Made by a program: the position numbers. DNA of 62,966 bases from sequence record LC645450; one strand, 5' to 3'. This document shows positions 3,001 to 9,000 of the stretch, in pieces. Each line of letters opens with the position of its first letter. The stretch's first letter is position 1. The DNA comes from Escherichia phage PPwrbA_EC3734.

Positions 3001-6000
3001 ACAAATCGTATTCCACTTCTGGCAAGTTGATTTGCGATTTCCAGACACTGCCTTAATTCAACTGGTGATGCCTTTGTCAACGTCGTTTTTTCGCTCATTG
3101 GTTTTCTCCAGAAATTTAACAATACCCGGAACCATCTCAATGGATGGTGTGCCGCATTGGTTACCCCATACATCAAATCCATGCGAGGTGTGGCGGGCGA
3201 ACAGTTCTATCCGGGGAACATCGCCAAGAAGTTGCACAAGCTTTTCTCGAGCCATATCCGGCTTGCGGGAGTGATCAAGGCGCGGTGCAGTGAATGACTG
3301 GATTATTCCGGCGTTAATGCGTTCGGGCAGATTTCCTTTCACTGCAAAAAGGCAGTCTTCGCTGTTAGCGCGAGTGGTGCTACCCATACCCATGACCAGC
3401 TTGTCGGTCTGTCTTTTCCCGCATTTGTTCCAGGTTAATCCTTTCATCGTCACCAGACGAAAGCCCCACGCTTCTACAACCTTCAATGCTTCAAGTGGTT
3501 GTGTAGGCACCCACCACATAGACAACAGGCAATTATCGGCTGCCAGTTCCCATACCGGGAGGCGGCAGATATCCAGAAGACTCATGACCGGATATTTAAA
3601 ACTTGCACCGCGTTGACCATCGGTTGCTTTGTCGCGGAATGTCCAGGGGGGATCTGCGTAAATGAGGGTGTATTTTTTCGTCATAGCGCGTTTTCAAACT
3701 CATCAATGTAAAGTCCTGCTTTAATCAGTCGGCGACGGCGTTCGGCCTTTTGCACGTATTCCTCGCGACAGTTTTTTGCTGCGTGTTCACGGCTTCTGCG
3801 ACTGAATGGAGGAACGGCATTGCGTGAGCGAGGTGTGTCACGACGAGGATTTGATTCGAGGGAGAAAAAGCGATCAACGATTCCGGTGTCTGTGGTGAAT
3901 GGTTCTGAAGCCTTTATTTTCACAACCTTACTGCCCTTTGTCAGGCCGCGAGCTACCTTGTTGAACTCGCAAAGTGAAACACCAAATTTCTCTGCTATTT
4001 CACTGCCAGTAACAGGACGACCACGAGACTGAATCATCCAAGTGACGCGTTCTTTTAACCCACGGAAGGCACCGGGCCTTCCAGAACGCCTGTAGAAAGC
4101 GATCTGTTTCAAATTTTTGTCTCCAGATATGAAAACCCCGACGGGATGTCGGGGATGGTAGGGGAAGTTACAGGCTTAACGAGAAGCCTTTTCGGGAATT
4201 TCGATCTGACAATCTTGAAATATCCTGTAGCGTGCGGCGCATTTCTTCCGTCAGATGCTTGAAGGCGTTAAATTCAGCGACAGCGGCGTCAACGTTATAG
4301 CCTTTGCTGTGTAGCTCATTGAGGATGCGCATAGTTGGGCTTGGCATGTCGAAGAGCACAGAAACGTCCAGGTTAAGAGTTTTTCGATCAACATAGCTCA
4401 TCATGGAGTAGGGGTGGTGCTCTGAAAACCACGATAGAGGGTAGTTGATGTTCATTGGTGCAGGTAAAAGGCTCTGGCGAAGTTTCTTTTCGCACTCGAT
4501 GAAGTATCGGCGTATCTGGCGGCCTTTTTCGTTGTGCTCCACCATCGCCAGTTCTTTGGCTGTGTCGAGGGTGAGGTGGTAATCCTTGCGGTTGTGACCG
4601 CCTCTACCAGATGTTTGCTTTCCCAAATTGGAAAGCAAAATATAGTCTTGATTTTCAATGAATTCGTATTCTGAAATGCGATTTGTAATCCATGCCGCAA
4701 ACACCTTTTTCACGCCTAAAAAAGCATGCAGATCGCGGGCATTGCAGAGTAGGGCTGTTTCGTTGGCGATAGTGCCGTTGAATACGGGGATGAGTTGACT
4801 GGTCATTTTTATGTCCTTTGCATTTGTTCAGATAGCCCTGTGTTCAGCAGGGCGGTCAGGTACTTGAACACCGTGCAAAGTCGGCCCGTATCCTTAACCT
4901 TTCGGTTGTTTTTCGGTATACGCGCTACCCGACCATATCTGAGAAATGGACATAAAAAAGCCGCATGACTGACGGGTGCGGTTTCCGCTTTGCAAGGTGT
5001 GTTCAGCACCATGAAGCGGAATATAGCCCCGTTAATGCGGATTTGTCAAATCATGTGGTCTTTATCTTGCTGTAAGCCGCGCCATTCGGTCTTTTCCCCC
5101 AGATTTGGGGAAAACTATCTTGTCAAAATCATGCAGCCTTTCGTTCTCCTTCGATGAGTTCCTCGATCTTGTGCACTCCCGCCTCGTTGTAGCGAAATGT
5201 CTCGACCTGCTTGTCACTGTGCGCCGATTTGTCGATGAACCACTTCCCGTACTTTTCTGTTTTGAGCATGTAGGTGTTGGCAATGCGCCCTATCTTGTTG
5301 GCTGAAATGCCAAGCATGGTGCCAACCTCCGACGCAGAGTAGTGATGTTCATCAATGACCGGAAGAGGGATTGCACTAAAGCCGACGACGGGATTAATCA
5401 GGCTGGCGGCAACGACCTGTTTAGCTTCCGGTGCGAGGTGAGGGAGGAAGTCGAAGAGGTCTTTCATTGTGTCGACGGTCATTTTCAATGCGCGTGCCTT
5501 ACGGAATTCTTCAAGGCCATCCGGTGATTTCTTCGTGGTCGTTTTTTGTTGCAACTGCTGTTGCATTGATTCAAGTTTGTCGACCAGCGAACGACGGACG
5601 GCTTTCGACTCACGTGCGGCGACGCGCAGGGCTTGCTTGTAGGTCATCACTATAACCACCTGATCCGCTCCGCCTTTTTTCTTATCCATGGGGGTTACGA
5701 AAATTTCGTAACCCTCCCCCTCAAGCTCATCTTTGATGCGTGCAATGAAGTCGTTGTTGCGTACTTCTTTTTCGCCTCGCAGTCTCCGCGCCTCATTAAC
5801 CATTTTCAACAGCATCTGGCTGTCAATTGTTGCAGCCGGAAACGAAGACTGATTTGCAATATTGTTAATCATGTATTCTGTCCTTTTCAGATAAAAGAAA
5901 TCCCCGCCAATGCGAGGATTGTTATTCATTGCTGATACTCACCTTAATCTCAACATTTCGCAGCTTTAGCTCTACTGGCAGGTCTGACTTTCCGGTTAAT

Positions 6001-9000
6001 GCTAATGCGAGATTTTCTGGAGTAATGAGAGCAGTTATTGTTTTCCCCCTCGCCAGACGAATAATCATTCGTATCTCGCAATCGTCACATGCTCCCGGTC
6101 GAACAATTGAGATTTGTCCGTTCATCTCACTCTCCTTTGATGCGAATGCCAGCGGCGCGCTCGGCTTCACTTTGTTCCCAAAACCACTTGTGAAGCGCCA
6201 TAAGCTTTTCGTCAATCGGTGCATATTTGCGATTAAAGTAGGCCTGAGCATCTTTCTCAGATTCGTCCGGTAATTCGCCAGGGCCAAACAGTGTGTTATA
6301 AATCCATGCTAGTCCGCTCTTAGCGTCGCCAGTTGCCTGCCATTCGATAATGGCAGCCTGCATGACCAGAATGTTTTTCCCGATTAATAGGTCCAGTTCT
6401 TTGTACCGGTTGCGGATGTATGCATTCTCGCTTTGTAATTTTGCGTTGCGCTTTTCTGAGGCTTCAAGTAACGCCTGCTTATCGCGTAGCGCTTCTTCCA
6501 GTTCAGCAACATGGCATTCGCTATCAATAAGGTTGTTCTCTGCTGCTTCAAGCTCAACACGCAGCTTCCCTACCGTTAGCGCAATATCCTCGTTCTCCTG
6601 GTCACGGCGTTTGATGTATTGCTGGTTTCTTTCCTGTTCATCCAGCAGTGCCAGCACAACCTGAGGTGTGGCTTTCATACGAAATGCCAGCAATTTTTGA
6701 GGCGTTGCTACTGTTTCAATTGCTACTGCCGCCTCACGCAGTGCCTGGTAATTAATTTTGCTCACTGGTTGCCTCCTTTGTGGATCTGCGCTGCGATGCA
6801 CGAAAAAAAAGATTCCCGCGTATGACAGTTAAGAGCTGGTGCGAAAGCCGCGTTAAGAACGGCAGCATCACAGCCGTCATCGATATAGAGCGCAATTTTT
6901 TTCTCCAGGCGCGCTTTGGCTTCCTGCAACTGCATACCCCGGCACGTACGCGGGATATACTCAGCAATTTGAGCGATAGATTTTTCGTTCTGTTTAAACA
7001 TGCTTCACCTCGACAGGCTTGATTGTGTCGATCAGCAGTCTGCGGCGCGTATTTTCTGCAAAGTGGCGGCGTCCGGTTTCTTTGTGGTAAAACTCGTTTT
7101 TGCCGACGACCCACATCCGCTCTGTCTGGTGAAGTTTTTTTACCTGCGGGCCGTCTTTGGTGATCACAATGCCGGTATGGGTTTTTACGATTGTCATGCC
7201 ACTACCTCTTCGAATTTCAACTCCAATTGGTCACCCCAGATTTCACATGATTCGGAACACGAACCAGTATCAAACCGCTTGGCCAGCACCATCGCTTGAT
7301 ACAAATTGCTGTAGTCGCTGTCGGCATACATCCTGGCAATCCCGTCAAGCGTCAGGTGACCACGGTACATAACGTCTTTACCTGTTCTGCGATGACCATC
7401 CCTGACGTGTTTGCCTGTAACCAGTTCATTAAAAACCCGCATCAGACCAGGTTCGTCTTTACATGCAAGCCCCAGCTTTTGCGTTGACTTTTTGATGCAG
7501 AAAACACAGTTCCCGAGGTGCTCCGGGATTTGCAAATCAAAAGGTTGTTTTCGCCACCACCGGATAACATCCGACTTATCAAAATCTGACAGTTCGGCAA
7601 GATACCGGACGCCCGGTTTCGGTTTCAGCCTACGGGGTTCGTCTGCACGAATACCCAGCCACGTGATGTAGTTCCCTTGTCCGAAATGGTCATCGCAGTA
7701 TTTTATGAAGGGGGTGAGTTTTAATCTGTCAGTGCAGAACGCGCCGCCGATGTATGGCGTGCCATATTTTTTTACCATGTCCATAAACGGTTTAAGCACC
7801 GGCATTCGCGTCTGAATATCCTTTGGTTCCCATTCCGTATAACCATTTGGCTGCCCAAGCTCTGGATTTATATCGACCTGCAACACGGTTAGCGGAATAT
7901 CCCAGAACTTCACAACCTCCCGAATAAACCGGTACGTCAGCGGGTGTTCACATCCCGTATCCATGAGTATGTAATGAACGTTTTCACCAGCTTTTCTGCG
8001 TTGCTCCATAAGGTGGACGAGGTACGCCGATGTCCGACCGCCTGAAAAACTCACAACATGATGAGTGCTCATTTCTTCGTCTCGTTACGGGGAGGGGGTT
8101 AAATAGGTGGTAAGCTGGAATTGCCGGATGTTTACCCGTGTCCGGGGTACGGCCTCACGTTGCAGCGTACGAGAATGGACTATTGCTCAGTGTCGTTTGA
8201 TGTCGGCTGAGGACATTCGCCTTGCTCTCACAACAGAGCAAGAAGCATGGACACCCCCTCACGATGTGATGATTGGTGAGTGTCGATCCCTGAATGATTG
8301 ATGTTGTTAAACTCAAACATCTTGCTCCTGGCAATAGCCTCAACGGTATTCCAGAATACTAATAGTTCTGTTTTCTGCTCTGTTTTATCAGCAACAGGAA
8401 GTTTGATATGTTGTTGACATTTATTAATGCAACCATTTTGAATATGTTCCTCGTGCTTTTCATTGTCATAAGCATACAGCCCGACAAAAACATCTCGCAC
8501 GTTACGGGAAATATTTTCCAGATTCGTCTTTGGTTCCTTTATTAAATTAAGCACCGATAAATGGGCTTTAAGCGTATCCGCAGCTATTTTCTGAATATCC
8601 GCTGGTAAATCTTTAAATTGCATAGTATACCCTCCAAGAACTGTGTATTTTCTCGTGAAATATGAGCGATATGTCGTGACGTCCCTGTCACAGATTTCAT
8701 CACACTGAGAACGTGCCGATGAAGGTTAAGATATCTTCTTCTTCGAAACGCTCTTTCAGCAGGTCACGGAACTCTTTGGCAATTTCTTCTTCCGCAGCTT
8801 CAACACGCACGATACGTAGCACCAGAACAGGCTGTTCGCTTGTCAGAATGCTTAATCGCAGCGTGAATTCCCTGTTGCCCAGGCCCTCGTATGGGATGCA
8901 TTCAAAGCGGAAAGTGGCAGGCATGATTTCTTTGCTTTTAGCCTCCACGGACTCCATGACTGAGCGGCTACCGCTGAAGTTTTGCTCTTCATATTCAGCA

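Follow-up and report, generated by a model that had tools for sequence, protein, structure and literature searches.

We analyzed two genes near the integrase end of Escherichia phage PPwrbA_EC3734 (sequence record LC645450). The window, by which we mean the whole stretch of DNA that was analyzed, is 62,966 nucleotides long. One gene encodes an MT-A70 family N6-adenine methyltransferase, and the other encodes a PP-loop protein of the phosphoadenosine phosphosulfate (PAPS) reductase superfamily that resembles NinC of phage lambda. Both are on the minus strand, with a gap of 3.5 kb and about 7 other genes between them, and the window contains just one methylase, one NinC-like gene, and one gene for PNB-2, the partner subunit of the methylase. 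All genes between the integrase (188-1522) and about 17.8 kb lie on the minus strand, so this region is the part of a lambdoid pL arm that lies next to int. From 2.8 to 8.7 kb, the window shares 99% identity with the early-left arms of many Stx2a-converting phages (Stx is short for Shiga toxin) and of Escherichia phage Lyz12581Vzw, which is classified in Sepvirinae, Oslovirus. The host element is a Stx-phage-like lambdoid prophage with a mosaic early-left arm. An initial annotation had recognized both enzymes, placed them in the same leftward operon about 3.5 kb apart, and proposed that they form a single DNA-modification or anti-restriction module. The leftward orientation and the spacing are as described, but a terminator and a promoter-like site intervene, and we will argue that the two genes belong to separate units.

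The methyltransferase gene (3058..3684, minus strand) encodes a protein of 208 amino acids that starts MTKKYTLIYADPPWTF. This protein matches Pfam's MT-A70 family across the entire profile (PF05063; E = 5.3e-22, 79 bits versus a cutoff of 23.9, profile positions 1-172 of 172) and also matches phrog_359, "DNA methyltransferase" (E = 8e-117). It contains the catalytic DPPW motif (YADPPWTF, residues 9-16) on which the initial annotation was based, so that assignment is confirmed. Upstream of the methylase is the gene for PNB-2 (gp6; 3681..4112, minus strand), a winged helix-turn-helix (HTH) protein of 143 amino acids and the published partner subunit of MT-A70; it is identical to gp09 of phage PA2 (143/143 residues). 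The stop codon of PNB-2 and the start codon of the methylase overlap (ATGA, 3681-3684). Between gp6 and gp7 (PNB-1/Ant) is a Rho-independent terminator (4131..4154, minus strand) whose sequence exactly matches the published one (PMC10810198). It was the top terminator-like site in our scan, which scored it as a strong intrinsic terminator at 4136-4154, with a 7-bp stem that includes 6 GC pairs, followed by a run of T. This terminator separates the PNB-2/MT-A70 cassette from the genes upstream.

Gong, Chakraborty, and Koudelka (Nucleic Acids Research 2023; PMC10810198) described the holoenzyme from the Stx phages phiPA8 and phiPA2. The phiPA8 methylase, M.EcoPA8orf6770P (gp5), is an MT-A70 protein with a DPPW motif that is encoded by the fifth gene counted from the phage's left end; it co-purifies as a 1:1 complex with PNB-2, the protein that the upstream gene gp6 encodes, and PNB-1 (gp7) is outside the holoenzyme (PMC10810198). 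In an in vitro assay of S-adenosylmethionine (SAM) utilization, the holoenzyme preferred 16S rRNA over DNA (PMC10810198). The phiPA8 methylase boosts spontaneous induction and virulence, and a DPPW->APPA mutant does not (PMC10810198). The same paper states, as a personal communication, that the cassette has its own growth-phase-regulated promoter (PMC10810198).

The window's cassette is this published unit, because its PNB-2 is 100% identical and its MT-A70 99% identical to the PA2 proteins and because the terminator matches exactly. (For MT-A70, the comparison is to the N-terminal fragment of a gene that is split by IS629 in PA2, with 130 of 131 residues identical.) Thus, on sequence grounds, the window's MT-A70 is a homolog of M.EcoPA8orf6770P. 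Counted from int, it is also gene number five, as reported (PMC10810198), and the genes follow the same order (int, xis, DUF1627, DUF1382, methyltransferase, PNB-2, and Ant), with the identical gp7-gp6 terminator. The window's methylase is intact, as in phiPA8, while that of phiPA2 is split by IS629, and between the cassette and NinC its DNA is not the same as in phiPA2. The mutagenic primer given in PMC10810198 has no match in the window within 2 mismatches, and the differences are silent.

Another relative is M.EcoGV from E. coli O104:H4, which PMC10810198 calls highly similar to M.EcoPA8orf6770P. As cited there, Fang et al. (2012) found that M.EcoGV methylates GATC sites in DNA when it is overproduced without PNB-2. 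In two Stx phages of O104:H4, P13363 and phiON-2011, the cassette is 99.9% identical to the window's. We expect that the window's cassette (3058-4154) operates as a winged-HTH protein that is translationally coupled to an N6-methyladenine methyltransferase and is insulated from upstream genes by the terminator. PNB-2 would bind MT-A70, and the pair would move methyl groups from SAM to adenine. The reported substrate is 16S rRNA, plus a weak or overexpression-dependent activity on GATC sites in DNA.

The second gene (7194..8072, minus strand) encodes a protein of 292 amino acids; it starts MSTHHVVSFSGGRTSAY / MSTHHVVSFSGGRTS. The initial annotation considered it to be a PAPS-reductase-like PP-loop protein, based on the motif SFSGGRTS, and profile searches agree. 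The N-terminal residues 5-72, and no others, match Pfam's PAPS_reduct (PF01507; E = 2.9e-08, 34.4 bits versus a cutoff of 22.5), and the full length of the protein matches phrog_424, "phosphoadenosine phosphosulfate reductase" (E = 2e-92). A more specific match is NinC of phage lambda, to which the protein is 80% identical over residues 5-292 (about 80.5% at the DNA level). Lambda records in the phage collection label the matching gene as NinC or PAPS reductase, and phage VT2phi_272 has a 100% identical gene that is labelled "NinC protein." When we searched one genome per species, a copy with about 80% identity was found about 41 kb into lambda contaminant contigs of about 48.5 kb, which is the position of the nin region in lambda. 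In lambda, ninC is part of the early-right operon, where it lies beside ninB in the nin region, while the window's copy is in the early-left arm, between the DUF2303 and Ea22-like genes. Judging from its similarity and its position, the window's gene is a copy of lambda ninC that was relocated from the nin region to the early-left arm, where it belongs to a second cassette (about 6762-8623).

The contigs with lambda-identical ninC, of about 48.4-48.5 kb or short fragments with low coverage, are assigned to unrelated organisms such as Pseudomonas, Shewanella, Oceanobacillus, Bradyrhizobium, and Kitasatospora (loci L082-L092 and others). These are almost certainly contamination of the assemblies by lambda control DNA.

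Lambda NinC (Orf290) is non-essential and is listed among the poorly understood proteins of lambda, and our literature search found no functional study of it. The family is large, with 380 clusters (at 50% identity) at E <= 1e-30. We aligned 67 homologs and found that every invariant column is retained by the window's protein, which shares the PP-loop and cysteine motifs of lambda NinC. In the PP-loop, S10-G11-G12-R13-x-S15, all five named residues are invariant; the window's SGGRTS has threonine where the canonical SGGxDS has aspartate. A second motif, D38-T39-G40-x-E42-H43 (DTGxEH), is invariant or nearly so. Cysteines C113, C126, C189 and C192 (C189-x-x-C192), and C276 are invariant, and C272 is present in at least 90% of the homologs (C272-x-x-x-C276). 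The last two are part of a C-terminal motif, GSCSESCE in the window's protein, in which E274, S275, C276, and E277 are conserved. Many representatives of the family reach 330-380 amino acids, with about 60 residues inserted mid-domain. Some other homologs have extensions with no match in Pfam, such as about 470 N-terminal amino acids in locus L044 (8579-11053) and about 200 C-terminal amino acids in protein P0130 (492 amino acids).

We also predicted the structure of the window's NinC with AlphaFold2. The mean confidence was high (predicted local distance difference test, pLDDT, of 88), with a disordered cysteine-rich tail (residues 267-292) in which C272 and C276 lie at pLDDT below 50. Comparing this model to the PDB with Foldseek, the top matches were CysH (6vpu) and APS (adenosine phosphosulfate) reductase (2goy), followed by GMP synthetase, LarE, NAD synthetase, MnmA, and TtuA. 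TM-scores were modest, at about 0.3-0.5, and searches of both the PDB and BFVD returned generic PP-loop folds that do not pinpoint a substrate.

If the two genes formed a module, then they should be inherited together, and the initial annotation had named conservation of the gene neighborhood across prophages as the way to check this. We judged co-occurrence from the marginal counts of each gene and from loci that extended 10 kb to either side. In IMG/VR, MT-A70 genes of at least 99% identity had PNB-2 adjacent in 15 of 17 loci, and where the full 10 kb upstream was available, NinC was present in 3 of 13 (one of the three, L178, has an MT-A70 of about 99% identity). Close relatives of NinC were absent within 10 kb of the shorter isoform of MT-A70 (77-83% identical), in 0 of about 52 loci. 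Starting from NinC instead, window-like MT-A70 was confined to the cluster of Stx phages: it was not found within 10 kb of a 100% identical NinC (L002), nor in the four loci that have a 94-95% identical NinC and 10 kb of downstream sequence.

Larger collections gave the same picture. In the phage collection, the PNB-2/MT-A70 cassette is intact in 97 records and a close NinC is intact in 43. About 35 Stx2a phages, among the matches listed, have kept the cassette at 99.5% identity while NinC is reduced to its last 166 bp, as if a single deletion had spread through a lineage. (The 166-bp remnant is 100% identical in the LC7278xx Stx2a phages, which are 43-54 kb, and is found around position 10.3 kb of those records.) Also among the matches listed, NinC has hits of 80-90% DNA identity in 17 lambda-like records, and no lambda-type record was found with MT-A70 as the query. 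Complete E. coli genomes (n = 5,426) include 423 with a NinC-like gene and 132 with the cassette. Like lambda, many prophages of E. coli carry NinC but no MT-A70. Among the 597 places in those genomes where NinC-like genes were found, 74 are on plasmids, at about 92% identity (for example, 62664-63533 of the 100-kb plasmid NZ_CP123256.1); these are presumably phage-plasmids.

In short, the pair does not consistently co-occur in related genomes, which is the very outcome that the initial annotation had said would count against its proposal; by that standard, the two genes are not a module. We conclude, with a probability of roughly 70%, that the region contains two independent accessory cassettes of a mosaic lambdoid early-left arm, and not one two-enzyme module. 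As just described, the two cassettes are inherited independently, and the terminator insulates the first of them.

In prophages of Xenorhabdus and Photorhabdus, intact NinC genes are followed, 59 bp and 1.3 kb downstream, by sequences that are 43-48% identical to MT-A70 and that lie near xis and int (L097, 10776-11072; L105/L031, 5446-5586). We considered whether these were intact methylase genes and rejected this, as only C-terminal remnants are present.

Two considerations do not fit easily with independent cassettes. These remnants may reflect an older co-location of MT-A70 and NinC, after which the methylase decayed. Also, during lytic growth, antitermination by N would probably carry transcripts from pL past the terminator, so that both genes are expressed together.

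Although NinC is not tied to this MT-A70, relatives of NinC are physically joined to other methylases. Homologs that are about 55% identical to the window's NinC carry a C-terminal phage Dam domain (PF05869; P0079, P0088, and P0109), and one of them, from Vibrio phage 44E38.1 (P0088), is already named "Dam methyltransferase with PAPS reductase domain." The loci contained further NinC-Dam fusions and three triple fusions: C5 methylase, NinC, and Dam in Sodalis (L116) and in L048, and C5, NinC, and D12 in Mixta (L113). In all three of these proteins, the NinC domain lies between the C5 and adenine methylase domains. Among the best 150 matches from a search of representatives at 50% identity, 6 of the 7 proteins that are longer than 440 amino acids carry an adenine methylase domain. 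These include both Dam-NinC (P0121 and P0123) and NinC-Dam (P0122, P0127, and P0150), as well as NinC-D12 (P0128). Overall, the fusion partners span three Pfam families of methyltransferases and both domain orders. The partners were all Dam, D12, or C5, and there was no fusion of NinC to MT-A70 among the fusions we examined. NinC can thus sit inside multi-domain phage methyltransferases, whereas the window's NinC stands alone and adjoins no methylase. We did not find recurrent fusion of NinC and methylases in both orders described in the searchable literature. An AlphaFold2 model of one NinC-Dam fusion (P0109), built from an alignment of five sequences, had a pLDDT of 56, a predicted TM-score (pTM) of 0.43, and a disordered linker of about 60 residues, so it is uninformative as to how the domains pack.

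NinC is also linked to methylases by PNB-2. Using a profile of PNB-2, we found that L028/L029 have a homolog (33% identity, E = 3e-18) directly upstream of NinC, with a 12-bp gap, and that L041/L042 have another (54% identity, E = 6e-53) upstream of a NinC-Dam fusion. When we collected 128 loci anchored on PNB-2-like genes (with 118 distinct downstream sequences), about 120 of them had a methylase on the same strand within 2.2 kb downstream. In loci L321-L464, whose PNB-2-like proteins are 51-56% identical to the window's, this slot typically starts about 150 bp after the stop codon of PNB-2 (around locus position 4575). MT-A70 is the most frequent occupant, and the others are Dam, D12, N6_N4, C5, C5-Dam (as in L329), C5-D12 (as in L335), and NinC-Dam, with an occasional HNH or PD-(D/E)XK protein. 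The constant element is thus the PNB-2-like protein, which leads a slot where methylases are swapped and which NinC, too, can occupy. This points to a general role for PNB-2 in the methylase cassettes of phages, as leader, regulator, or adaptor, and away from one as a subunit that is dedicated to targeting rRNA. A PNB-2-led methylase slot that can hold NinC was not found described in the searchable literature either.

The more ordinary neighbors of NinC are less informative. Across 52 dereplicated loci, the commonest are NinG, DnaB, Dam, integrase, a Q-like protein, a single-stranded DNA-binding protein (SSB), the repressor, and NinB. We considered the adjacency of NinC and Dam as evidence that they are coupled, and as a control we examined 60 lambda-type loci anchored on NinB, 56 of which have no NinC. 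In 24 of those 56, Dam lies 36 bp after NinB, so we rejected this line of evidence. Because Dam is common in this slot of the nin region anyway, we gave weight only to the fusions and to the PNB-2-led slot.

What might NinC do? Tentatively, and at less than even odds, we propose that the NinC family is a new kind of phage nucleic-acid modification enzyme, and is not involved in sulfate assimilation; it would be ATP-dependent and based on cysteines or an Fe-S cluster, and would plausibly perform thiolation of bases or phosphorothioation of the backbone. Within a swappable anti-restriction cassette, its companions would be DNA methylases, for adenine and for cytosine, and winged-HTH proteins like PNB-2. 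From its conserved motifs, NinC is predicted to be a PP-loop enzyme that uses ATP and that probably has an Fe-S or cysteine-persulfide center. By analogy to other PP-loop enzymes, NinC would bind ATP, adenylate an oxygen of its substrate, and replace that oxygen, probably with sulfur that is delivered via the conserved cysteines or the Fe-S cluster. The substrate would be a nucleic acid, and we favor DNA because the fusion partners and slot-mates of NinC are DNA methylases and because its closest relative among defence proteins is SspD; the change would most likely be the insertion of sulfur. As we found no conserved partner gene, NinC would take sulfur from host donors and, within the phage's modification or anti-restriction toolkit, it may act alone.

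The similarity to SspD is itself partial. In a search of the PADLOC defence library, SspD was the best match (E = 2.4e-14), followed by DndC and BrxP (about 6e-4). NinC shares with these proteins the superfamily, the PP-loop, and conserved cysteines, but only its N-terminal half aligns: residues 4-148 of NinC matched positions 1-121 of the 277 in the SspD model. Also, NinC is much shorter than DndC or BrxP, and it scored just 15.5 bits against the DndC model TIGR03183, versus a cutoff of 290.4 bits. Neither the window's neighbors of NinC nor its commonest neighbors in the 52 loci include a cysteine desulfurase, an ATPase like DndD/SspC, or a DndE/SspB protein.

Several results weigh against a role for NinC in DNA modification. 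In a neighbor-joining tree, the fusions from the loci with NinC followed by a methylase fall into a single subclade of NinC. The independent fusion events are few, and we can say that there were at least two because both domain orders exist. The adjacency of NinC and Dam is not above background. Finally, lambda DNA, which is made with NinC present, is a standard substrate, and we know of no unusual modification in it, which argues against abundant modification of DNA by NinC alone.

NinC might instead modify RNA, for example by thiolating tRNA or rRNA as TtcA, TtuA, ThiI, and MnmA do, and so tune the host's translation alongside rRNA methylation by PNB-2 and MT-A70. Most of the characterized PP-loop enzymes that modify nucleic acids act on tRNA, MnmA, TtuA, and LarE were among the structural matches of NinC, and a target in RNA would agree with our knowing of no unusual modification of lambda DNA. 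PNB-2, which is reported to direct MT-A70 to 16S rRNA (PMC10810198), has homologs directly upstream of NinC. Nevertheless, we view RNA as an unlikely target: the fusion partners (C5, Dam, and D12) and the slot occupants (N6_N4, C5, D12, and Dam) are canonical DNA methylases, and the best match in the defence library, SspD, is a DNA phosphorothioation protein.

It is quite unlikely, in our view, that the NinC-like gene is a true viral cysH, that is, an auxiliary metabolic gene for a PAPS or APS reductase that boosts the host's sulfate assimilation and has nothing to do with nucleic acids. CysH has a degenerate PP-loop and a catalytic cysteine in a C-terminal ECGLH motif, and sulfonucleotide reductases in general have a catalytic cysteine tail, which the flexible cysteine-rich tail of NinC resembles. 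NinC and these enzymes also have in common the match to PF01507 and the DTG motif, and CysH and APS reductase were the top structural matches. In contrast, the P-loop and the C-terminal motif of NinC (SGGRTS and GSCSESCE) differ from those of CysH; we obtained no alignment of NinC to the C-terminus of CysH, where GSCSESCE takes the place of ECGLH. Sequence and profile searches of the PDB found similarity to CysH and APS reductase over about the first 100 residues only, the structural matches had TM-scores of just 0.34-0.50, and the cysteine-rich C-terminal half (about 140 residues) has no sequence match. NinC falls far below every curated cutoff for CysH or PAPS reductase (16.1 versus 165.1 bits for TIGR00434, 12.6 versus 254.2 bits for TIGR02057, and 22.6 versus 154 bits for NF002537). 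The repeated fusions to methylases and the placement in a methylase slot are also hard to reconcile with sulfate assimilation. Kieft et al. did count lambda NinC as a cysH auxiliary metabolic gene, and cysH is the most abundant viral auxiliary metabolic gene for organosulfur metabolism in their study (bioRxiv 10.1101/2021.01.05.425418).

The least supported of the three alternatives is the original proposal of one module, in which MT-A70 and the NinC-like enzyme would act together, for example to protect or hypermodify phage DNA jointly. In its favor, both genes point leftward in the early-left arm, the NinC family is elsewhere fused to adenine methylases in both orders and found behind PNB-2-like genes, NinC is followed downstream by remnants of MT-A70 in prophages of Xenorhabdus and Photorhabdus, and the close homolog M.EcoGV is cited as methylating GATC sites in DNA when overproduced (PMC10810198). 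Against it, the two genes are not inherited together, a terminator separates them, as do variable genes, MT-A70 has PNB-2 as its demonstrated partner and prefers 16S rRNA in vitro (PMC10810198), and no fusion of NinC to MT-A70 was seen among those examined. We consider a joint module to be improbable.

With two independent cassettes, the pair resolves into known parts: a published Stx-phage methyltransferase with its partner, and a relocated lambda ninC. Phage genes that have been published or deposited are essentially identical to those of the window. Nucleic-acid modification is the broad class that both genes share, in separate cassettes; the initial intuition was sound in that the NinC family is fused to DNA methylases and shares the PNB-2-led slot, but NinC is not paired with this MT-A70.

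Relatives of NinC have widely been counted as viral cysH genes, and the fusions and the shared PNB-2-like leader offer a testable alternative, namely nucleic-acid modification. If NinC is indeed a modification enzyme, then a share of the viral "cysH" auxiliary metabolic genes are modification enzymes too. The function of lambda NinC, which has been a question since the lambda genome was sequenced, becomes experimentally approachable. That the PNB-2-led slot is filled by five families of methylases also bears on whether the MT-A70 of Stx phages targets rRNA or DNA. As the slot otherwise holds canonical DNA methylases, a corollary is that the main substrate of the PNB-2/MT-A70 pair in vivo may be DNA. 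The substrate matters because this methylase influences the induction of Shiga-toxin phages.

The remaining genes of the region are as follows. Just upstream of the PNB-2 terminator is the AntA/AntB-type antirepressor-like gene (PNB-1, gp7; 4168..4806, minus strand; Pfam AntA, PF08346, E = 1.1e-25; phrog_377). A paralog of this protein is encoded at 13125-13772 (minus strand); the C-terminal halves of the two are nearly identical (NINYPLSWFSEHHPY...AVAEFNAFKHLTEEMRR) and their N-terminal domains differ. Upstream of the Ant/PNB-1 gene, a consensus scan identified a candidate sigma-70 promoter (5020..5049, minus strand; TTGACA-18-TATATT, 11 of 12 matches). Between this site and the NinC cassette is variable filler (5129..6801), which comprises genes for an antirepressor-like protein of 266 amino acids (5129..5929, minus strand) and an Ead/Ea22-like protein (6127..6801, minus strand), both from Pfam and PHROG matches (phrog_1726 and PF13935 for the filler). 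Phages Lyz12581Vzw and PA2 have other genes in its place.

Two small open reading frames (ORFs) of 79 and 67 amino acids, from ORF calls, are packed tightly downstream of NinC (6762..7197, minus strand). The shorter one, orf67 (phrog_1226), overlaps the stop codon of NinC by 4 bp; it directly follows close early-left copies of NinC in 9 of 16 loci, and lambda-type copies lack it. On the other side, an ORF of 131 amino acids (phrog_1363) and a DUF2303 protein, identified from Pfam and PHROG matches, travel with early-left NinC (8228..9521, minus strand).

Using approximate motifs as queries, we found no match to Stx2A or Stx2B peptides in any frame of the window, which resembles a Stx-converting phage but seems to be without stx. 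After a Q-like gene (22647-23180) come three tRNAs, tRNA-Met(CAT), tRNA-Arg(TCG), and tRNA-Arg(TCT), at 23622-23871, and only about 530 bp separate these tRNAs from an ORF for a nanS-p-like esterase of 645 amino acids (24402-26339).

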